DNA of 64,000 nucleotides from Escherichia coli (GTDB lineage: Bacteria > Pseudomonadota > Gammaproteobacteria > Enterobacterales > Enterobacteriaceae): NCBI RefSeq assembly GCF_003334255.1, contig NZ_QOWU01000003.1; one strand, given 5' to 3'. Below the pieces are notes generated by a model that was not told where the DNA came from, made no database searches, and saw only the letters and a program-made list of their open reading frames with translations. The position numbers and the translations under genes are program-made. Of the stretch, positions 1 through 28,889 are shown piece after piece. How positions within the stretch are numbered: position 1 is the stretch's first letter; the number at the start of each line of letters is the position of its first letter.

Positions 1-91
1 GCGGTGATGGGGCGTTTATTCGTGACGAGGCTAACATTACGCTGGTTGCCGATTCCCCACTGCGCGCTTTGCTGATAGATTTGCCTGTCTA
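1..91 (+). CDS. yhaK: 3' end of pirin-like protein gene (partial, 5' end outside window)
   Basis: Frame starting at nt 3 reads ...SPLRALLIDLPV then TAG at 89-91; position immediately upstream of yhaL matches K-12 synteny. Only 29 codons visible. Confidence 0.45.
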
Positions 92-114
92 GTTGTTTTT
101 ACAGGGAGATGATG

Positions 115-279
115 ATGAGTAAAAAATTGGCCAAAAAGCGCCAGCCGGTGAAGCCCGTGGTGGCGAAAGAACCTGCTCGCACCGCCAAAAATTTTGGCTA
201 TGAAGAGATGTTGAGCGAGCTGGAAGCTATCGTCGCGGATGCTGAAACGCGTTTAGCCGAGGATGAAGCTACCGCGTAA
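115..279 (+). CDS. yhaL: small conserved protein YhaL (54 aa)
   Basis: ATG at 115 (two further in-frame ATGs at 109 and 112), reads MSKKLAKKRQPVKPVVAKEPARTAKNFGYEEMLSELEAIVADAETRLAEDEATA, TAA at 277-279. Not in the supplied ORF track (short). Synteny next to yhaM/cyuA. Confidence 0.6.
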   Translation: MSKKLAKKRQPVKPVVAKEPARTAKNFGYEEMLSELEAIVADAETRLAEDEATA

Positions 280-285
280 AGACAG

Positions 286-402
286 GTTGCCGGATGCGGC
301 GAAAACGCCTTATCCGGCCTACAAAATCCAACAACATTAACGAATTAAACAACCCGTAGGCCGGACAAGATGCGCCAGCATCGCATCCGGCACGATCCCC
401 AA
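286..402. repeat. REP (repetitive extragenic palindromic) elements, two units
   Basis: gccggatgcggcg...cgccttatccggcctac and gtaggccggacaag...gcatccggcacg; typical REP consensus in convergent intergenic space between yhaL and cyuA. Confidence 0.6.
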
Positions 403-412
403 AACCTGGCGT

Positions 413-1723
413 TTATCTGGCCTTGCTCGCCATAATCTCGATAATCTGCCGATCCGTTTGCTGCATCGAATGGCTTGCTAACGCACACAGGTTGGCAATC
501 GACTGCTCAACATCATGCGCCACAATCCCTTCATTGCCGGTCACGGCGGTATCATCCAGCGCCATTAACACCGCTTTCCACGCAGCCGAAGCACTGGTCG
601 AAACCTTCATCGCGCAGCTGTTCGACGCACCATCGCAAATCATGCCGCTGACATCGCCGATCATACTGCTGATCGCCATCGAGATGGTTTCATAACGCCC
701 ATCCACCAGCCATGCCATCCCGGCGGCGGCCCCCATTGCTGCGGTCGTTGCGGCACACAGCGCAGACAAACGCGGTAACTGGTTATGGATGTAAATTGCG
801 CTCAAATGCGAAAGCATCAGCGCACGCGCCAGCCGTTCATCATCCGCTCCGAAGTGTTCTGCTACCACCACCACAGGCATTGTTGCGGTAATCCCCTGGT
901 TACCCGAGCCGGAGTTACTCATAGCCGGAAGCGTAGCGCCGCCCATACGCGCATCGGATGCCGCGCTGGTACGAATCACAATGGATGAAGAGAGATCTTT
1001 CGCCAGCAAACCGCGCTCGCACTGTTTTTCCAGCGTCGCGCCAATATGCAGCCCCCACTTACCGCTCAAACCTTCCTGCGATAACGCACAATTTAGCTTC
1101 GCGGAATCGAGAATAAAGCGGATCGCCGCAAACGGGACTTCATTGACGAACTTCAGGATCTCAGCCAGCGTCGTTCTGGAAAGCACCGTCAGCGGAGACT
1201 CTTGCTCGCCCTCTGCCACACACGCCTGCTGGGTAAACACCACACCATCGTGCGTCTCGATATGCACAATGTTGGTATGCCCGCCGACGATGGTGACACA
1301 CGCCCACTTCTCACCGTTCCAGACTTTGGCGCGTGAGAAGAGGATTTCATCGCAAGGTTCCTGGATCTTAACGGAGACTTTCCCCGCCGCCAGCAGTGCT
1401 TTGGCATCGGCAATTGCCTGCGCTGTTGCGTCTTTCAGCACTTCCAGCCCGGCGTTGGCATTTCCACCTAACGCCCCCAGCGCCGCCGCAATCGGCAGCC
1501 CCACCATTCCCGTGCCGGGAACGGTGACGCCCAGACCGTTCTTCATCAGATTTGGCGAAACCCAGGCTTCTACACGTTCAACCGGACCTTCCAGTTCTGC
1601 CGCAGCAACCGCCGCCGCCAGCGCCAGTGAAATCGGTTCAGTACATCCCAGCGCCGGTTTTACTTCCTCCTGAACGGCGAGGATGTAACGCTGCCATAAC
1701 GGATTTAAAGTCGAATCAAACAT
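413..1723 (-). CDS. cyuA: L-cysteine desulfidase CyuA (YhaM), serine dehydratase-like family, 436 aa
   Basis: Supplied ORF translation [38 protein letters not shown]...; length and synteny with yhaO match K-12 yhaM. Confidence 0.9.
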
Positions 1724-1750
1724 ATTAAAAACCTTAAAATTTCAGGTAAA

Positions 1751-3082
1751 TCAAGAAAATGCCAGGAACGGAGAAACACACAGCAACAAACCAGTGACGA
1801 TAATCAGGTACAGAGACATCCCTTTGTATTTGTGCAATGCTGGTACTTTGTAAACCAGCCACGCCGGGATCAGGCACCCTACCATGCCGAAAATCGGGCT
1901 ACAGATAGAGGTGAAGCTCAACACCGGTGCGTTCAGTACGATGGCGCTCCAGGCCAGCAAAATGGCGAAAATCATGATGCCGCGCTGAACGAGATTTTCG
2001 TTAATCTTCTCGGCAGGCATCTTGCGACGCAGGATGTTCATTACGATCCCTTGCGTTGCTTCGCGAAAGCCTAAATAGACGCCAAAGAATGCAGTCATGA
2101 CAGCAAAGATATTGAGAATGACGCTGACCACTTTCACCCACGCTGCGCCGTCACCGCTAATAAACTGTGCGGCAATCGCCAGCGCGGAAATATTCTGCTC
2201 ATAGGCTTTTACCGCTTCGTCATGTCCCATCGCCAGCGTGAACGACACGGCGTAGAAAAAGACGGTGACAAACAAAATGCCAAACGCGATATTCATTGCC
2301 CGCAATGCTTTATGCCGCGCCACTTCAATTGATTTTTCCCGCGAGCGATAAGAGATCACCATCGGACTTAACGTCTGGATAAACAGAATCGACGTCAGGG
2401 TAAACGGCAGCGTAATAATGGCGTTTTTCACCAGCAGCCCCAGCGGCGGTAGCGAACCGACGTTATACAGATGCCACATTCCCACCATCGACACGCCCAG
2501 CGCCGCGACCACCAGCAGCTTGGTCAGCACCATGCCGGTCGAAATTTTGAATAACAATTTCTCGCCGCGTGAGGAGATCGCCACCAGAATGCAAATCAGT
2601 ACCAGACCATAAAAGGGACTGTCTGACAGCAACCCTTCCGTCACGCCGAAGGTATGCAGGTAGGAAGCACTATCGTTGGTGATGGCGGTGGAATAGACGA
2701 ACATCCAAATCACCAGCATTACGAAATAGAGCGCACCTAACAGGATGCCCCAGTTTTTACCTAAATAACCGCTAATGACGCTCGGGTAATCTTTACATTC
2801 TGGTGATTCTGCCAGCGTATTAATAAACAATCGCTGAAACAGATACATTGCCGGGTAACCAATCACCGATGAGAGCAAAAATACCCACAATCCCATCAAA
2901 CCGACCTGCACCGGGAGAAAAACAATCCCCGCGCCAATCGCCATCCCGATACTCATAATCACCCAGCCGGTGTCAGTACTGTCGAATTTGATCGCTTCTC
3001 GCCACTCGCTCTCACTCATTCCAGCACGACCCGCCGGGGTCGAAGCGTCTGCAATGACGCCTTTATTCGATGCAATTTCCAT
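1751..3082 (-). CDS. cyuP: cysteine/serine transporter CyuP (YhaO), HAAAP family permease, 443 aa
   Basis: ORF translation is a polytopic membrane protein with the conserved GAGIVFLP motif of the TdcC/SdaC family; operon partner of cyuA. Confidence 0.9.
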   Translation of the reverse strand: MEIASNKGVIADASTPAGRAGMSESEWREAIKFDSTDTGWVIMSIGMAIGAGIVFLPVQVGLMGLWVFLLSSVIGYPAMYLFQRLFINTLAESPECKDYPSVISGYLGKNWGILLGALYFVMLVIWMFVYSTAITNDSASYLHTFGVTEGLLSDSPFYGLVLICILVAISSRGEKLLFKISTGMVLTKLLVVAALGVSMVGMWHLYNVGSLPPLGLLVKNAIITLPFTLTSILFIQTLSPMVISYRSREKSIEVARHKALRAMNIAFGILFVTVFFYAVSFTLAMGHDEAVKAYEQNISALAIAAQFISGDGAAWVKVVSVILNIFAVMTAFFGVYLGFREATQGIVMNILRRKMPAEKINENLVQRGIMIFAILLAWSAIVLNAPVLSFTSICSPIFGMVGCLIPAWLVYKVPALHKYKGMSLYLIIVTGLLLCVSPFLAFS

Positions 3083-3306
3083 AATTTCTCGCTCAATATT
3101 TTGTAGGGCTTATTATTTTTTTCCGAGCCGCATCAAGGCGATATGCGGTCTACGTTTTTGCAGGCGAGTTATTAGAATAAAGAAATGATACGCGCGAGGT
3201 CAGAGAAAATCTTCACAATCAAGACTTTGAAATAACGGAGATGGATAAGAATTTTCTACTAAATTAATCGCAGGAGAATATTCATTCTCTATTTGCGGCA
3301 GATCAC

Positions 3307-3332
3307 AAAAAAAAGGTGCACATTTGTGCACC
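3307..3332 (-). terminator. rho-independent terminator downstream of tdcG
   Basis: Minus strand reads ggtgcacaaatgtgcacc (8-bp arm inverted repeat) followed by a T-run (plus strand A-run 3307-3314). A second small hairpin gctgaca-gcaa-tgtcagc lies at about 3344-3361 next to the tdcG stop. Confidence 0.55.
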
Positions 3333-3356
3333 CAAGGATGAAAGCTGACAGCAATG

Positions 3357-4721
3357 TCAGCCGCAGACCACTTTAATGGCCAGTCCTCCGCGTGATGTTT
3401 CGCGGTATTTATCGTTCATATCTTTGCCGGTTTCATACATCGTCTCGATCACTTTATCGAGTGAAACACGCGGTGCCGAGGTGCGGCGCATCGCCATCCG
3501 CGCGGCGTTTACTGCTTTCACGGCATTAATGGCATTACGTTCAATGCACGGGATTTGTACCTGTCCGGCAACCGGATCGCAGGTCAGCCCAAGGTTATGC
3601 TCCATCGCGATTTCCGCCGCATTGCATACCTGCGCCGGACTGCCGCCCAGTAGTTCAGTTAACCCTGCCGCCGCCATTGAACAGGCCACGCCAATCTCCC
3701 CCTGACAGCCGACTTCCGCGCCAGAGATGGAGGCGTTCATTTTATACAGCGCGCCAATAGCCCCCGCGGCCAGAAAATAGCGGGCAATTGACCGCTCGTT
3801 TACCGGACGACGGAACTTATCGTAATAAGCCAGTACTGCCGGAATAATGCCGCACGCACCGTTAGTCGGTGCCGTTACCACGCGCCCGCCAGCTGCGTTT
3901 TCTTCACTAACCGCCAGCGCGTACATGTTGATCCAGTCGATGACATTCATCGGATCGTTAGAGATGTTATCGCTGGAAACCAGCTGACGACGCAGCGCTA
4001 CGGCACGGCGCGGCACATTGAGCGGACCAGGCAGCACGCCTTCAGTGTTCATCCCACGTTCAATACCGTCATGCATCACTTGCCAGATACGGGCAAAACC
4101 GGCGTCAATTTCCGCTTTGCTGCGCAGCGCTAGCTCGTTGTGCATCATCAGACCAGATATAGACAGGCCGTTGTAATCACACATTTTCAGCAGTTCACCT
4201 GCTGAGTGGAAATCGTAAGGTACGGACGTTTCGACATCGTGCGACAGGCCGAAGTGTTCTTCTTCGACAATAAACCCGCCGCCGACAGAGTAATAGGTTT
4301 TACTTAATAGCTCTTCCTGTCCCTTCCAGGCAGTGATCCGCATTCCGTTCTCATGGCGAGGCAACATTTCGGGATGGAAGATAATGTTCTTTGCTACAGG
4401 AAAATCAACAATATGCGCACCAGATGCCACTGGCAGCCGCCCGCTGCGCGTTACTAACTCTATAAATGCAGGGATCTCATCAATGACAACATCCTGCGGA
4501 CTGTTTCCTGCCAGTCCCATGATGATGGCGACATCCGTGGCATGGCCTTTGCCCGTCAGTGACAACGACCCGTACAGATCGACCACAATATGGCTCGTCG
4601 CGGTTAATAAGCCGCTACTTTCCAGCCGATCAATAAAACTTTTTCCGGCATTCATTGGCCCCACGGTATGCGAACTGGAGGGACCAATCCCAATTTTGAA
4701 AATATCGAATGCACTAATCAT
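3357..4721 (-). CDS. tdcG: L-serine dehydratase TdcG, 454 aa
   Basis: ORF contains [23 protein letters not shown]..., the Fe-S L-serine dehydratase signature; ATG (cat on plus) at 4719-4721 gives 454 aa; the track ORF begins 2 codons upstream at a GTG. Confidence 0.9.
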
Positions 4722-4792
4722 ATCCACACCCTCGGATTGCCGTTCAGTGAAGTGGAGCGGAACGACCTTACGACCGTCCCGCTCACGAGGCT

Positions 4793-5182
4793 TTACGCAC
4801 TACGTACTGCGATGGCTTCAATTTCCAGCTTCACATCTTTCGGCAAACGCGCGACCTGCACACAGCTCCGGGTCGGATAGGTCGCCTGATGCTCATCGAA
4901 GAACTGCTTATAGACTTCGTTGATGGTGGCAAAATCATTCAGATCGGTGATAAACACGGTCATCTTGATGATATCGCCCACGCTCAGCCCGGCAGCAACC
5001 ACGATCGCTTTGACGTTTTCGAGGCTTAAACGCGCCTGATCTTGCACATCAGCCGGGATCTCACCGGTCTGTGGGCAAACCGGTATTTGCCCGGAGGTGA
5101 AGACCATGCTGCCTAAATCAACGCCCTGAACATAAGGGCCGATTGCGCCTGGGGCACGTTGCGTTTCGATAATCTTTTTCAT
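4793..5182 (-). CDS. tdcF: RidA-family enamine/imine deaminase TdcF, 129 aa
   Basis: MKKIIETQRAPGAIGPY... (YjgF/RidA fold); ATG at 5180-5182 preceded by GGAGGA RBS; the longer track ORF (150 aa) is an upstream extension overlapping tdcE. Confidence 0.88.
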   Translation of the reverse strand: MKKIIETQRAPGAIGPYVQGVDLGSMVFTSGQIPVCPQTGEIPADVQDQARLSLENVKAIVVAAGLSVGDIIKMTVFITDLNDFATINEVYKQFFDEHQATYPTRSCVQVARLPKDVKLEIEAIAVRSA

Positions 5183-25659: not shown

Positions 25660-26439
25660 ATGGAAATCAGCCTGTTGCAGGCATTTGCGTTGGGCATTAT
25701 CGCCTTTATCGCTGGCCTGGATATGTTTAACGGCCTAACCCATATGCACCGCCCGGTGGTCCTCGGCCCGTTGGTCGGGCTGGTACTTGGCGATCTGCAT
25801 ACCGGAATTTTAACCGGCGGTACGCTGGAACTGGTGTGGATGGGGCTGGCCCCGCTGGCGGGCGCACAGCCGCCTAACGTGATTATCGGTACTATCGTCG
25901 GCACGGCGTTTGCCATTACTACTGGCGTGAAACCCGATGTCGCAGTAGGTGTCGCCGTACCTTTCGCTGTCGCAGTACAGATGGGGATTACCTTCCTGTT
26001 CTCGGTGATGTCCGGCGTGATGTCTCGCTGCGACCGGATGGCGGAGAACGCCGATACTCGCGGCATTGAACGCGTGAACTATCTGGCACTGCTGGCACTC
26101 GGCATTTTCTATTTTCTCTGCGCTTTCCTGCCTATCTACTTCGGCGCGGAACATGCAAAAACCATCATTGATGTCCTGCCGCAACGATTAATCGACGGCC
26201 TCGGCGTCGCGGGCGGCATCATGCCAGCAATCGGTTTTGCCGTGCTGCTGAAAATCATGATGAAAAACGTCTACATCCCCTACTTCATCCTGGGCTTTGT
26301 TGCCGCCGCCTGGCTCAAGTTACCAGTGCTGGCTATTGCTGCCGCTGCGCTGGCGATGGCGCTGATCGACTTGCTGCGTAAATCTCCTGAACCGACTCAA
26401 CCTGCGGCACAGAAAGAGGAATTTGAAGATGGCATCTAA
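25660..26439 (+). CDS. agaW: PTS N-acetylgalactosamine-specific EIIC component AgaW, full length (259 aa)
   Basis: Mannose-family IIC membrane protein; full length here, whereas the K-12 MG1655 allele is truncated by a deletion (established knowledge). Confidence 0.88.
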   Translation: MEISLLQAFALGIIAFIAGLDMFNGLTHMHRPVVLGPLVGLVLGDLHTGILTGGTLELVWMGLAPLAGAQPPNVIIGTIVGTAFAITTGVKPDVAVGVAVPFAVAVQMGITFLFSVMSGVMSRCDRMAENADTRGIERVNYLALLALGIFYFLCAFLPIYFGAEHAKTIIDVLPQRLIDGLGVAGGIMPAIGFAVLLKIMMKNVYIPYFILGFVAAAWLKLPVLAIAAAALAMALIDLLRKSPEPTQPAAQKEEFEDGI

Positions 26440-27307
26440 TCAAACCACCCTGCCGAACGTCAGTGAAAACGAAGAAACATTGCTGACTGGCGTCAATGAA
26501 AACGTGTATGAAGATCAGAGCATTGGCGCGGAGCTGACGAAAAAAGATATCAACCGCGTCGCCTGGCGTTCCATGCTGTTACAAGCGTCTTTTAACTACG
26601 AACGTATGCAGGCTTCTGGCTGGTTGTACGGTCTGCTGCCTGCTCTGAAAAAGATCCACACTAATAAACGCGACCTGGCGCGCGCCATGAAGGGGCATAT
26701 GGGTTTCTTCAATACCCATCCGTTTCTGGTGACGTTTGTTATCGGCATTATCCTTGCGATGGAGCGTTCTAAGCAGGACGTTAACAGTATTCAGAGCACC
26801 AAAATTGCCGTCGGTGCGCCGCTTGGCGGGATTGGCGATGCAATGTTCTGGCTAACGCTACTGCCGATTTGTGGCGGGATTGGAGCCAGTCTGGCATTGC
26901 AAGGCTCCATTCTTGGCGCAGTCGTCTTTATTGTGCTGTTCAACGTGGTACACCTGGGGCTGCGTTTTGGTCTGGCGCATTATGCTTACCGCATGGGCGT
27001 GGCGGCGATTCCACTGATTAAAGCGAATACCAAAAAAGTCGGCCATGCTGCGTCTATCGTTGGGATGACGGTAATCGGTGCGCTGGTGGCAACCTATGTT
27101 CGTTTAAGCACCACGCTGGAAATCACGGCGGGCGACGCAGTGGTTAAGTTACAGGCTGATGTTATCGACAAACTGATGCCGGCCTTCTTACCGTTGGTCT
27201 ACACCCTGACCATGTTTTGGTTGGTACGCCGCGGCTGGAGTCCGCTGCGTCTGATTGCAGTTACCGTGGTTCTCGGCATCGTCGGTAAATTCTGCCATTT
27301 CCTTTAA
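26429..27307 (+). CDS. agaE: PTS N-acetylgalactosamine-specific EIID component AgaE, 292 aa
   Basis: ATG at 26429 (MASNQTTLPNVSENEETLL...) 9 nt after AAGAGGA; mannose-family IID; overlaps the agaW stop. Absent from K-12 MG1655. Confidence 0.88.
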   Translation: MASNQTTLPNVSENEETLLTGVNENVYEDQSIGAELTKKDINRVAWRSMLLQASFNYERMQASGWLYGLLPALKKIHTNKRDLARAMKGHMGFFNTHPFLVTFVIGIILAMERSKQDVNSIQSTKIAVGAPLGGIGDAMFWLTLLPICGGIGASLALQGSILGAVVFIVLFNVVHLGLRFGLAHYAYRMGVAAIPLIKANTKKVGHAASIVGMTVIGALVATYVRLSTTLEITAGDAVVKLQADVIDKLMPAFLPLVYTLTMFWLVRRGWSPLRLIAVTVVLGIVGKFCHFL

Positions 27308-27324
27308 ATACAATGAGGTATTAG

Positions 27325-27759
27325 ATGTTAAGTATTATTTTGACAGGGCATGGCGGGTTTGCCAGCGGCATGGAAAAAGCAATGAAGCAAATTCTCGGTG
27401 AGCAATCGCAGTTTATCGCCATCGATTTTCCGGAAACCTCAAGCACCGCGCTGCTTACATCGCAGCTTGAAGAGGCCATCGCCCAACTGGATTGTGAAGA
27501 CGGCATTGTTTTTCTGACGGATTTGCTGGGCGGCACGCCGTTTCGCGTAGCTTCAACGCTGGCGATGCAAAAACCGGGCTGTGAAGTGATCACCGGCACC
27601 AATTTGCAACTGCTACTGGAGATGGTGCTGGAGCGCGAAGGGTTAAGCGGTGAAGAATTCCGTGTACAGGCGCTGGAGTGTGGACACCGAGGGCTGACCA
27701 GTCTGGTGGACGAGTTAGGCCGCTGCCATGAAGAATGTCCGGTCGAGGAAGGAATATGA
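27325..27759 (+). CDS. agaF: PTS N-acetylgalactosamine/galactosamine EIIA component AgaF, 144 aa
   Basis: MLSIILTGHGGFASGMEKAMKQILGEQSQFIAIDFPE... (mannose-family IIA with active-site His in the TGHGGFA context). Confidence 0.88.
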   Translation: MLSIILTGHGGFASGMEKAMKQILGEQSQFIAIDFPETSSTALLTSQLEEAIAQLDCEDGIVFLTDLLGGTPFRVASTLAMQKPGCEVITGTNLQLLLEMVLEREGLSGEEFRVQALECGHRGLTSLVDELGRCHEECPVEEGI

Positions 27760-28889
27760 CACACGTTCTGCGCGCCAGAAGGCTGCTGACTGAAGAGGGA
27801 TGGCTCGATGACCATCAGTTGCGTATTGCTGACGGTGTCATCGCAGCAATCGAACCGATTCCAGCGGGCGTGACTGAACGCGATGCGGAACTGCTCTGCC
27901 CTGCTTACATCGACACCCATGTACACGGTGGTGCGGGCGTTGATGTAATGGATGACGCGCCGGATGTACTCGACAAGCTGGCAATGCACAAGGCACGCGA
28001 AGGTGTCGGCAGTTGGTTACCGACCACCGTAACCACGCCGCTTAATACCATTCATGCGGCGCTGAAACGTATTGCTCAACGTTGCCAACGCGGCGGACCT
28101 GGTGCGCAAGTGCTGGGGAGTTATCTCGAAGGACCGTACTTCACGCCGCAGAATAAAGGCGCGCATCCGCCGGAGTTGTTTCGCGAGCTTGAAATTGCCG
28201 AGCTGGATCAGTTGATTGCCGTTTCTCAGCACACCTTACGTGTGGTAGCGCTGGCACCGGAAAAAGAAGGGGCATTGCAGGCCATCCGCCATCTTAAACA
28301 GCAAAACGTAAGGGTGATGCTGGGGCATAGCGCGGCGACCTGGCAACAAACCCGCGCCGCATTTGATGCTGGTGCCGACGGCCTGGTGCATTGCTATAAC
28401 GGGATGACAGGTTTACATCACCGCGAACCGGGAATGGTTGGCGCGGGATTAACGGACAAGCGCGCCTGGCTGGAACTGATAGCCGATGGTCATCATGTGC
28501 ATCCGGCGGCAATGTCGCTGTGTTGTTGCTGTGCGAAAGAGAGAATCGTACTGATCACCGACGCGATGCAGGCAGCTGGGATGCCGGATGGTCGCTATAC
28601 GTTATGTGGTGAAGAAGTGCAGATGCACGGTGGCGTTGTCCGTACCGCGTCTGGTGGGCTGGCGGGCAGTACGCTGTCTGTTGATGCGGCAGTGCGCAAT
28701 ATGGTCGAGTTGACGGGCGTAACGCCTGCGGAAGCCATCCATATGGCGTCACTGCATCCGGCGCGAATGCTGGGTGTTGATGGTGTTCTGGGATCGCTTA
28801 AACCGGGCAAACGCGCCAGCGTCGTTGCGCTGGATAGCGGGCTACATGTGCAACAAATCTGGATTCAGGGTCAATTAGCTTCGTTTTGA
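27756..28889 (+). CDS. agaA: N-acetylgalactosamine-6-phosphate deacetylase AgaA, full length (377 aa)
   Basis: MTHVLRARRLLTEEGWLDDHQLRIADGVIAAIEP... with NagA-type metal ligands (HVHGG); ATG overlaps the agaF stop (ATGA). Full length here; K-12 MG1655 carries a 5'-truncated allele. Confidence 0.88.
   Translation: MTHVLRARRLLTEEGWLDDHQLRIADGVIAAIEPIPAGVTERDAELLCPAYIDTHVHGGAGVDVMDDAPDVLDKLAMHKAREGVGSWLPTTVTTPLNTIHAALKRIAQRCQRGGPGAQVLGSYLEGPYFTPQNKGAHPPELFRELEIAELDQLIAVSQHTLRVVALAPEKEGALQAIRHLKQQNVRVMLGHSAATWQQTRAAFDAGADGLVHCYNGMTGLHHREPGMVGAGLTDKRAWLELIADGHHVHPAAMSLCCCCAKERIVLITDAMQAAGMPDGRYTLCGEEVQMHGGVVRTASGGLAGSTLSVDAAVRNMVELTGVTPAEAIHMASLHPARMLGVDGVLGSLKPGKRASVVALDSGLHVQQIWIQGQLASF

Follow-up and report, generated by a model that had tools for sequence, protein, structure and literature searches.

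Identity and organization of the locus

The DNA analyzed here, referred to as the window, is a stretch of 64,000 nucleotides from Escherichia coli. Two genes for the uptake and breakdown of cysteine lie in its first 5000 positions, with yhaL as the neighbor on the cyuA side and tdcG on the cyuP side, the same neighbors as in K-12:

281–422, minus strand: palindromic REP/BIME-type elements separating yhaL from the 3′ end of cyuA
413–1723, minus strand: cyuA (yhaM), open reading frame of 436 aa; L-cysteine desulfidase, a [4Fe-4S] enzyme; 100% identical to K-12 cyuA
1724–1750, minus strand: cyuP–cyuA spacer of 27 nt with an AAGG Shine-Dalgarno-like sequence, found by sequence inspection
1751–3082, minus strand: cyuP (yhaO), open reading frame of 443 aa; L-cysteine importer; 100% identical to K-12 cyuP

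Sequence comparison of window positions 1–5000 with E. coli K-12 MG1655 gave 100% DNA identity, and at least 80% of this segment is present as a single piece in 5355 of 5426 complete E. coli genomes. RefSeq names cyuA “cysteine desulfidase / L-cysteine desulfidase” and cyuP “amino acid permease / L-cysteine importer”. The operon thus carries the same DNA as K-12 cyuPA, without difference in the two genes, the spacer or the neighbors yhaL and tdcG; the rest of the window has one fewer copy of a 113-bp repeat at rnpB than MG1655, and its agaW–agaA segment is intact. Loddeke 2017 reportedly deals with E. coli K-12 cyuPA (yhaOM; b3110-b4470). The cyuPA genes are already known and published for exactly this sequence, and no new knowledge is added at the gene level. 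For substrate, activity and the dependence on CyuR and Crp we rely on published studies of the same genes. The present analysis itself shows the identity, the domains, the ligand and catalytic residues, the terminator, the gene order and the conserved upstream blocks.

An earlier note on this DNA had read the two genes as an operon arrangement for cysteine import and desulfidation, which is borne out by the K-12 identity, the annotation and the gene order. We found cyuP followed by cyuA on the same strand in 39 loci, ranging from Enterobacterales to Negativicutes and Desulfarculales, with a gap of 13–100 nt in nearly all of them and of 366–405 nt in three. A terminator scan of the cyuP–cyuA spacer detected no terminator-like site. 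The cdsAB operon of Yersinia ruckeri (Mendez 2011) has in common with cyuPA a permease gene followed by a desulfidase gene, cysteine uptake and cotranscription. The Yersinia locus in our scan shows the same permease–desulfidase order with a gap of 76 nt; it has no adjacent tdcG, and its leader contains ACCTGC and lacks ATCGC. The REP/BIME region gave sub-threshold matches to the REP-derived Rfam family naRNA4 at 281–319 and 359–422, a fold of −63.9 kcal/mol (z = −6.1) and terminator-like sites at 366–350. These elements are likely the 3′ boundary or a stabilizer of the cyuPA transcript.

CyuA carries the residues of a cysteine desulfidase

Residues 91–428 of CyuA match the serine dehydratase alpha-chain-like domain of Pfam (SDH_alpha, PF03313; E = 1.4e-58) and the cluster cysteines are present, in agreement with the earlier description as a serine-dehydratase-like Fe-S enzyme. 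No NCBIfam model matched CyuA, and tblastn of CyuA against the tdcG of the window gave no match at E ≤ 0.01. CyuA resembles the serine dehydratases TdcG and SdaA in its SDH_alpha domain and in the chemistry of a cluster held by three Cys. Unlike the [4Fe-4S] L-serine dehydratases, CyuA acts on another substrate and eliminates H2S, not H2O. Published work on the E. coli protein of the same sequence (PMC9040844) describes the conversion of cysteine to pyruvate, NH4+ and H2S as well as the oxygen-labile cluster.

Crystal structures of Methanococcus CyuA from 2025 define the [4Fe-4S] ligands and the catalytic residues. In a PDB search, CyuA matched the MmCyuA structures 9he0 and 9fsl with E = 2e-28. 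Compared with the proteins of Methanococcus maripaludis and Methanocaldococcus jannaschii (PDB 9fsl, 9fyi, 9he0, 9he2; MJ1025), the strong alignment covers the C-terminal cluster-binding part (242–434), whereas the central part aligned poorly and the N-terminal CTE motif weakly (i-Evalue 0.011). C323, C363 and C370 align to the cluster ligands Cys287, Cys329 and Cys336, C27/E29 to the catalytic pair Cys23/Glu25 (N-terminal Cys-x-Glu), and R259, N275 and K373 to Arg223, Asn239 and Lys339 of the anion site. The E. coli and methanococcal enzymes thus agree in their three cluster ligands, in the catalytic pair and in the Arg, Asn and Lys of the active site.

We counted the conservation of these residues among 136 CyuA family representatives with 33–66% identity. 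The three cluster ligands, R259 and K373 are invariant (136/136 each), C27 is present in 133 and N275 in 131, and position 29 carries E in 128 cases and D in five. The alignment that the earlier note had proposed as a check thus left the identification unrefuted, with the conserved Cys ligands in place. Judging from these alignments, CyuA retains every [4Fe-4S] ligand and catalytic residue defined in MmCyuA. The fourth, non-conserved ligand of MmCyuA, Cys289, corresponds to Ala325 in E. coli, a position at which 58 of the representatives have C, 44 have A and 18 have V.

CyuP is related to serine/threonine transporters

CyuP had been assigned to the HAAAP family of permeases, and the profile matches agree with this. 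It matches TIGR00814 (“stp”) over profile positions 1–397 of 397 with E = 2.5e-151, and the TdcC model NF010152 with E = 6.9e-28. The TIGR00814 score of 504.3 bits is lower than the curated cut-off of 525.8; the result is clear homology without strict membership by the NCBI rule. Among the TdcC/SdaC serine–threonine transporters, CyuP is homologous to TdcC, the copy in the window having 25.7% identity (436 aa, E = 2.5e-20). Permeases of the STP subfamily of HAAAP have about 11 transmembrane segments and ~400–450 aa. A crude Kyte-Doolittle scan of the 443 aa of CyuP resulted in 14 overlapping peaks, which correspond to ~10–11 separate hydrophobic segments. Comparison with the aromatic branch (Mtr/TyrP/TnaB) gave only E = 0.12 for Pfam Trp_Tyr_perm (PF03222) and no tblastn match to the mtr of the window at E ≤ 0.01, so that it is the transporter classification, and not these searches, that relates CyuP to this branch. 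On these matches, CyuP appears to be an HAAAP permease (TC 2.A.42) of the serine/threonine-transporter (STP) subfamily type, homologous to TdcC.

That the closest curated family of CyuP is a serine/threonine transporter fits a proposal from EHEC, in which the locus serves primarily D-serine uptake and sensing, with YhaO as the transporter, YhaM as a D-serine dehydratase-like enzyme and YhaJ as the LysR regulator. Connolly et al. [quoted passage not shown] In the same study, however, YhaM was non-functional as a D-serine dehydratase, and CyuA has the full cysteine-desulfidase active site. [quoted passage not shown] We consider it very unlikely that D-serine is the primary substrate and retain cysteine import and desulfidation as the function of the locus.

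The tdcG terminator

By transcription, cyuPA lies downstream of tdcABCDEFG; its earlier placement directly upstream of the tdc operon holds solely in plus-strand coordinates. The gene tdcG ends at 3357, and the region between tdcG and cyuP (3083–3356) is 274 bp long, as stated before. Two hairpins are located at its tdcG-proximal end:

3344–3361, minus strand: first hairpin, GCTGACA/TGTCAGC, overlapping the tdcG stop codon (3359–3357); from fold and sequence
3306–3333, minus strand: intrinsic terminator of tdcG and the tdc operon, 8-bp stem GGGTGCAC/GTGCACCT with five G-C pairs, then T8; from terminator scan and fold

Jointly the two hairpins fold with −25.5 kcal/mol (z = −4.5), and none of 200 shuffled sequences was as stable. 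The second one (3333–3314) has a 4-nt loop, lies 24 nt past the tdcG stop codon and is directly followed on its 3′ side by T8. It is a canonical Rho-independent terminator. Relatives retain the hairpin and the T-run, while the stem sequence varies. The end coordinate 3332 of the earlier note falls inside this hairpin, and the functional unit extends to ~3356.

Conserved elements upstream of cyuP

We compared the region upstream of cyuP with that of 36 other Enterobacterales loci, giving a footprint of 37 sequences; an alignment of 12 sequences was used for the AT-rich boxes. The conserved promoter-like blocks are consistent with the earlier expectation that the spacer holds the cyuP promoter:

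3292–3307, minus strand: TGTGATCTGCCGCAAA, CRP-like site; TGTGA-N6-TCAAA in Salmonella and Citrobacter
3244–3290, minus strand: AT-rich boxes AGAGAATGAATATTCTC (3290–3274) and TAGAAAATTCTTATC (3258–3244); AGAGAA and AGAAAAT..TTCTTA blocks of the 12-sequence alignment
3202–3218, minus strand: TTGTGAAGATTTTCTCT, most conserved upstream box in the phylogenetic footprint, overlapping the −35 position
3185–3190, minus strand: TATCAT (TATGAT in most relatives), candidate −10 hexamer by conservation
3092–3098, minus strand: GAGCGAG, 5′ of the cyuP ATG; AGCG fully or almost fully conserved across 26 Enterobacterales sequences

The candidate −10 hexamer is separated by a fixed gap of 11 nt from a TTTTCTC box (TTTCTC-N12-TATGAT) in ~28 of the 37 sequences. 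TATCAT is most likely the −10 of the cyuP promoter, with a putative transcription start near 3178 (about 3,258,106 in NC_000913.3). No usable −35 hexamer was present in the spacer 16–18 bp from the candidate −10, which suggests an activator-dependent promoter. A sigma-70 consensus scan of the spacer found no promoter, as expected if the promoter depends on an activator. GAGCGAG is, from its position, likely the ribosome-binding region of cyuP. Other readings of the region were tried and rejected. For class II CRP geometry, the centre of the TGTGA-N6-TCTCT box is 18.5 bp from the first base of TATCAT, compared with the 29.5 bp required. For sigma-54 and for the alternative −10 hexamers TCTAAT and TATTCT, the spacing to the conserved box varies among Citrobacter species.

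The negative sigma-70 scan, and the position of cyuPA on the same strand 274 bp after tdcG, could also mean that the two genes lack a separate promoter and are expressed as the distal part of the tdc operon, by read-through from tdcG. The strong intrinsic terminator after tdcG (8-bp stem, five G-C pairs, T8) argues against this. In addition, the TTTCTC-N12-TATGAT module and the leader are retained in Enterobacter, Proteus and Edwardsiella, in which cyuPA is not preceded by tdcG, and cysteine induces cyuPA while tdc is unaffected, the tdc and cyu promoters being discrete (PMC9040844). Read-through as the source of cyuPA transcripts is thus extremely improbable. A separate cysteine- and CyuR-dependent promoter of cyuPA has been published on the basis of SELEX, ChIP-exo and lacZ fusions, and cysteine induces cyuPA 80–100-fold (PMC5423876).

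CyuR binds upstream of cyuPA in published SELEX and ChIP-exo experiments. We searched for the published CyuR motif GAAwAAATTGTxGxxATTTsyCC and found no match in the window at up to three mismatches; in the spacer, using the letter code of the paper, the best match had eight mismatches, which 260 of 500 shuffles equalled and which is therefore at chance level. This 23-bp motif was derived from the promoter of cyuR itself with cysteine-free protein, so that the missing match is no argument against control by CyuR. The TTGTGAAGATTTTCTCT box (3202–3218) and the motif have only the core ATTGT-N4-ATTT in common; we regard the box as a candidate activator (CyuR) site. The AT-rich boxes at 3244–3290 are a weak lead to Lrp/AsnC-type sites: the best match of the Lrp consensus YAGHAWATTWTDCTR to the spacer had three mismatches, which is chance level in AT-rich DNA and therefore makes this assignment weak.

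The dependence of cyuPA on both CyuR and Crp is published (PMC9040844). The CRP-like site TGTGATCTGCCGCAAA was detected in the window and in 17 of the 36 other loci, with window-like spacing in 12 sequences, and lies ~99–111 nt upstream of the TTTCTC box. We take it as a candidate CRP site. The earlier note had stated that the cognate regulator is not in the window, and tblastn with K-12 CyuR agreed (best E = 3.5). Beyond the cognate regulator of the earlier note, Crp, YhaJ and the sRNA FnrS have been implicated in the control of cyuPA as well. What the analysis adds, on a small scale, is a map of the 274-bp control region with its conserved elements (candidate −10, activator box, CRP-like site, leader hairpin and two invariant pentamers), which could guide promoter mapping of cyuPA.

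Proposed function of cyuPA

The K-12 DNA identity, RefSeq names, domains, active-site residues, gene order, terminator and published work identify the locus as cyuPA. We are all but certain that it is the E. coli cyuPA (yhaOM) operon for cysteine import and desulfidation, with its own activator-dependent promoter, control by CyuR and Crp, and modulation by YhaJ and FnrS; no result spoke against the identification. In the proposed mechanism, L-cysteine enters the cell through CyuP, a permease of the serine/threonine-transporter type with high flux. In the oxygen-labile CyuA, the thiol of the substrate is bound to the free iron of the cluster held by C323, C363 and C370, and the catalytic pair C27/E29 eliminates H2S to leave pyruvate and ammonium, with pyruvate entering ordinary fermentation. 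Both genes would be co-transcribed from a promoter in the 274-bp spacer, past the tdcG terminator. CyuR, an Lrp/AsnC-family protein whose gene lies elsewhere, would activate this promoter in its cysteine-bound form; the promoter would also require Crp and be modulated by YhaJ and FnrS. Within this scheme we infer the exact −10 (TATCAT, 3190–3185), the transcription start and the assignment of boxes to proteins.

The same biochemistry could serve the detoxification of excess cysteine (the “DecR” view) and not the fermentation of a nutrient. Shimada 2016 and Nonaka & Takumi 2017 found yhaM as a cysteine-resistance gene, with cysteine-shock induction in less than 5 min, 80–100-fold, and better cysteine production upon yhaM deletion. 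However, an importer within the operon is poorly suited to protection, and tdc fermentation genes adjoin cyuPA in the Escherichia–Salmonella–Citrobacter clade. The operon requires Crp and is lowered by glucose, CyuPA allows cells to grow anaerobically with cysteine as the only source of C or N, and the enzyme is dead in air, yet the operon is induced there (PMC9040844). Detoxification as the main purpose therefore seems rather unlikely to us, and nutrient fermentation is preferred. The label anaerobic in the earlier note fits the enzyme but not the induction, as cysteine induces the E. coli operon regardless of oxygen (PMC9040844). The operon is the main route of E. coli from cysteine to H2S in the gut, and published work links it to antibiotic tolerance, azo-dye and drug reduction, EHEC virulence signaling and industrial cysteine yields.

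Conserved motifs in the cyuP leader

Two further conserved elements lie between the candidate −10 and the cyuP ribosome-binding region:

3161–3165, minus strand: CCTGC (often CACCTGC) in the presumed leader; invariant in 26 sequences
3128–3148, minus strand: leader hairpin CCGCAU/AUGCGG, fold of −10.7 kcal/mol, whose loop holds the invariant AUCGC (3142–3138)

ATCGC is invariant in 26 Enterobacterales sequences, and a hairpin encloses AUCGC in 26/26 species, with stem sequences that differ by genus. The leader pair 44–62 is CG in nine, UA in eight and UG in seven sequences, a covariation score that was reached by 0/500 shuffles. RNAalifold on a MAFFT alignment detected no covariation and gave just four pairs, all invariant, between UCGC and GCGA. 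(CA)CCUGC lies ~20 nt upstream of AUCGC. CCTGC also occurs in Proteus, Edwardsiella and Yersinia and is absent upstream of cyuP outside Enterobacterales; Photorhabdus and Xenorhabdus are without the leader motifs. An Rfam scan assigned the leader to no family.

Both motifs are complementary to conserved parts of FnrS: AUCGC to the loop of stem-loop 1 (AAGCGAU) and (CA)CCUGC to the 5′ end (GCAGGUG). In addition, the defect of an fnr mutant in sulfide production is complemented by fnrS (Pieper 2023). The cyuP 5′ leader might thus be a direct, positively acting target of this anaerobic sRNA, a possibility that we put forward tentatively and consider doubtful. As AUCGC can pair with GCGA of the cyuP ribosome-binding region too, FnrS might activate translation through a kissing-loop or an anti-antisense mechanism. 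Against it, the complementarity is short (5–8 nt), and the invariant columns carry no covariation. The sites in FnrS and in the leader are in parallel order, so that one continuous duplex is impossible. It is equally possible that the motifs are bound by proteins. RNAduplex of full-length FnrS with the leader was uninformative, with an energy no better than that of shuffles. If true, targeting by FnrS would make production of the oxygen-labile CyuA depend on anaerobic conditions, a coupling that transcription by itself does not provide in E. coli. The occurrence of FnrS-complementary pentamers together with a conserved hairpin in the cyuP leader may be a new observation.

The cyuPA operon and its surroundings

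The cyuPA genes of the window are a full match to the published E. coli operon and are already known. The interpretation offered in the earlier note is supported, with corrections. Its positions for cyuP and cyuA are exact, as judged from the ORF list, the RefSeq names and 100% identity of window positions 1–5000 to E. coli K-12 MG1655 (window position x corresponds to 3,254,928 + x in NC_000913.3). At least 80% of these 5000 bases are present in one place in 5355 of 5426 complete E. coli genomes. The right end of its range 413–3332, however, is arbitrary and falls inside the tdcG terminator stem. Its placing of cyuPA directly upstream of tdc holds only in plus-strand coordinates; by direction of transcription the operon lies downstream of tdcABCDEFG, as stated by Zhou and Imlay (PMC9040844).

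281–422: REP/BIME-type palindromes 3′ of cyuA, between yhaL and cyuA (sub-threshold Rfam naRNA4 matches)
413–1723, minus strand: cyuA, 436 aa (ORF list; RefSeq cysteine desulfidase / L-cysteine desulfidase)
1751–3082, minus strand: cyuP, 443 aa (ORF list; RefSeq amino acid permease / L-cysteine importer)
End at 3357, minus strand, as cyuPA: tdcG (ORF list)

The neighbours of the pair are yhaK and yhaL at one end and tdcG-tdcF-tdcE and further genes at the other. The 27-nt gap between cyuP and cyuA carries an AAGG ribosome-binding sequence, and a terminator scan found no terminator-like site in it. On the 3′ side of cyuA the palindromes form a very stable fold (−63.9 kcal/mol, z = −6.1), beyond which lies the convergent yhaL; one palindrome copy overlaps the final codons of cyuA. 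The best matches include several E. coli isolates with an IS element (IS1, IS903B, IS30) inside the 5-kb stretch. In E. coli EC24, cyuP is broken by IS1 into two pseudogene fragments (2483–3180 of that locus is cyuP interior), and cyuA is intact. Published views on the physiological purpose of cyuPA differ (fermentation, detoxification or D-serine sensing), whereas its mechanism is not disputed.

CyuA carries the active site of the desulfidase family

CyuA contains a serine-dehydratase alpha-chain domain (Pfam, E = 1.4e-58), and its only solved relatives are L-cysteine desulfidase entries (9fsl, 9fyi, 9he0, 9he2; E about 1e-28). No model of NCBIfam release 20 matches it at E ≤ 0.001, though PGAP names the protein cysteine desulfidase. 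In the Methanococcus maripaludis enzyme (MmCyuA), activity depends critically on Cys23 and Glu25, the site is lined by Arg223, Asn239 and Lys339, and Cys289 is a non-conserved, possible fourth ligand that is dispensable (PMC12647591). Residues were mapped by HMMER alignment, with an offset applied because PDB chain numbers equal the published numbers +2. Of 1.84 billion cluster representatives searched, 3870 matched at E ≤ 0.001, and E. coli CyuA was aligned with 135 full-length representatives 33–66% identical to it (n = 136).

Residues of E. coli CyuA, their MmCyuA equivalents and their occurrence in the alignment
C27 / E29: Cys23 / Glu25; C27 in 133 of 136, position 29 E in 128 and D in 5
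R259: Arg223; 136 of 136
N275: Asn239
C323: Cys287; 136 of 136
A325: Cys289; C in 58, A in 44, V in 18
C363: Cys329; 136 of 136
C370: Cys336; 136 of 136
K373: Lys339; 136 of 136

The earlier note had made its reading depend on conserved cysteine ligands, and C323, C363 and C370 are invariant. The variability of position 325 is as predicted from the description of MmCyuA Cys289, and the remaining five cysteines of E. coli CyuA are not conserved. In its sequence, E. coli CyuA shows every feature by which the CyuA desulfidase family is defined.

CyuP and related loci in other genomes

CyuP matches the whole TIGR00814 profile, the serine/threonine transporter subfamily of the HAAAP family (NCBIfam, E = 2.5e-151), with a score of 504 bits, slightly below the curated cut-off of 525.8. 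It also matches the TdcC equivalog (NCBIfam, E = 6.9e-28) and the TdcC of the window itself (25.7% identity over 436 residues, E = 2.5e-20), and the Pfam model of the aromatic branch gave no significant match (E = 0.12). Taken as a statement of homology to the hydroxy-amino-acid branch, the label HAAAP-family permease is therefore correct.

Conservation is far higher in CyuP than in CyuA: two distant genomes encode a CyuA 59–66% identical to the E. coli protein and a CyuP with far fewer substitutions. In one of these (L005) cyuPA adjoins ubiU-ubiV-ubiT-yhbS-yhbQ, genes that E. coli has about 40 kb from cyuPA, also within the window. A species-level genome collection was scanned with a degenerate DNA pattern built on the invariant N-terminal motif of CyuP. 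The scan gave 120 loci, 117 of which encode a CyuP relative; in these loci CyuP is 87–92% identical where CyuA is 66–77%. The same-strand order cyuP-cyuA occurs in 39 loci, with a gap of 13–100 nt in nearly all and 366–405 nt in three, and ranges over Enterobacteriaceae, Proteus, Edwardsiella, Yersinia, Rodentibacter, Chromobacterium, Megasphaera, Pelosinus, Pectinatus and a Desulfarculales MAG. In 12 loci (Aeromonas, some Shewanella) the two genes diverge, and in 8 cyuA precedes cyuP on the same strand. In Photorhabdus, Xenorhabdus, Providencia and Morganella the locus stretch examined contains cyuP but no cyuA. tdcG stands directly upstream of cyuP in 15 loci, which belong without exception to Escherichia, Salmonella, Citrobacter, Pseudocitrobacter, Kluyvera and a single Enterobacter. 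Therefore the cyuP-cyuA pair is an old two-gene module, and its attachment to tdc is a trait of one enterobacterial clade.

The control region upstream of cyuP

Sequences upstream of cyuP were aligned first for 12 close sequences and then for 37 from Enterobacterales (the window and 36 loci). Both alignments show discrete conserved blocks, of which the terminator comes first in transcription order.

3361–3344, minus strand: hairpin 1, GCTGACA/TGTCAGC, overlapping the tdcG stop codon
3333–3314, minus strand: hairpin 2, GGGTGCAC/GTGCACCT, followed by T8
3307–3292, minus strand: CRP-like site TGTGATCTGCCGCAAA; TGTGA-N6-TCAAA in Salmonella and Citrobacter
3290–3274, minus strand: conserved AT-rich box AGAGAATGAATATTCTC
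3258–3244, minus strand: conserved AT-rich box TAGAAAATTCTTATC
3218–3202, minus strand: box TTGTGAAGATTTTCTCT, the best conserved upstream block
3190–3185, minus strand: TATCAT, at a fixed 11-nt gap after the TTTTCTC box; TATGAT in most relatives
3165–3161, minus strand: invariant CCTGC in the leader
3148–3128, minus strand: leader hairpin with invariant ATCGC in its loop
Directly before the cyuP ATG, minus strand: A-rich tract, then CCCTACA, then GAGCGAG

The tdcG terminator hairpins expected in this spacer are present. The two fold jointly at −25.5 kcal/mol (z = −4.5), and hairpin 2 with its T8 is a textbook intrinsic terminator. A simple sigma-70 scan found no promoter in the spacer. About 28 of the 37 sequences, those of Proteus and Edwardsiella among them, have TATCAT/TATGAT at the fixed gap. 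We propose that this hexamer would be the −10 element of an activator-dependent promoter, because there is no usable −35 at 16–18 bp from it; the box overlapping the −35 (3218–3202) is predicted to be the most likely activator site. The CRP-like site is shared by the window and 17 of the 36 loci, with about 12 nt of variation in its distance to the TTTCTC box.

The published 23-bp motif of the Lrp/AsnC-family regulator CyuR (DecR) was derived from the cyuR promoter with cysteine-free protein. It has no better-than-chance match upstream of cyuPA (3083–3356), a validated CyuR target. The sole shared part is the core ATTGT-N4-ATTT (3219–3207), inside the most conserved box; these 9 bases are expected about once per window by chance. 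CyuR binds upstream of yhaO (cyuP) in SELEX and ChIP-exo, and EHEC YhaJ binds a probe of about 300 bp there (PMC4699771). Cysteine induces cyuPA more than 50-fold via CyuR, transcription in E. coli depends, directly or indirectly, on Crp and is independent of oxygen, and the tdc and cyu promoters are discrete (PMC9040844). These published facts fit the anatomy of the control region, which does not prove them. As the earlier note had it, the cognate regulator is absent from the window (CyuR tblastn, best E = 3.5); K-12 cyuR (decR, b0447) lies at 468 kb, and yhaJ about 0.7 kb past the left end of the window.

A leader hairpin and its possible pairing with FnrS

A leader hairpin around the invariant AUCGC is found in each of 26 aligned Enterobacterales species (mean z of the local fold −1.9), with stems that differ by genus (CCGCAU/AUGCGG, GUACUGC/GCAGUAC, CGUUGC/GCAACG, GCCGCG/CGCGGU). 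In a fixed-register alignment 64.8% of cells pair, compared with 56% in shuffles, and the covariation score was reached by none of 500 shuffles; one base pair is CG in 9, UA in 8 and UG in 7 sequences. Controls slid by −3 and +2 did not score much lower than the true register, because the Enterobacter group has a shifted 3′ arm. Rfam has no family for this leader (3128–3165).

The leader CCUGC (CACCUGC in many species) is complementary to the 5′ end GCAGGUG of the anaerobic small RNA FnrS, and AUCGC to GCGAU in the conserved loop AAGCGAUG of FnrS stem-loop 1. Both complements occur together in 0.5% of shuffled FnrS sequences, and the trio of leader motifs is confined to Enterobacterales. Pieper et al. 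2023 report that fnrS restores sulfide production in an fnr mutant and that a positive role of FnrS in cyuP regulation has been proposed. Given these reports and the complementarity, direct activation of cyuP by putative anti-antisense or kissing-loop pairing with FnrS is conceivable, yet we regard it as rather unlikely: the stretches that could pair are short and the sites lie in parallel order, the invariant columns yield no covariation, and the transcription start is a predicted one. In an alternative fold by RNAalifold, the leader UCGC pairs with GCGA of the cyuP ribosome-binding region.

Other features of the window

About 2.3 kb of the window (26036–28330) is missing from K-12 MG1655, at the site of the truncated PTS IIC and N-acetylglucosamine-6-phosphate deacetylase pseudogenes of K-12 (agaW′..agaA′); therefore the window appears to carry an intact aga segment. 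Outside this segment it is 99.9–99.98% identical to K-12. A 113-bp tandem repeat at the 3′ end of rnpB (repeat 14918–15197; rnpB 15175–15551, minus strand) is present in 2.5 copies. The MG1655 assembly used for comparison has one unit more, which shows that the window is not MG1655. An Rfam gathering scan found the sRNA SraG (58492–58663, plus strand) and the S15 leader (58893–59007, minus strand) near rpsO-pnp, as expected for that part of the E. coli chromosome.
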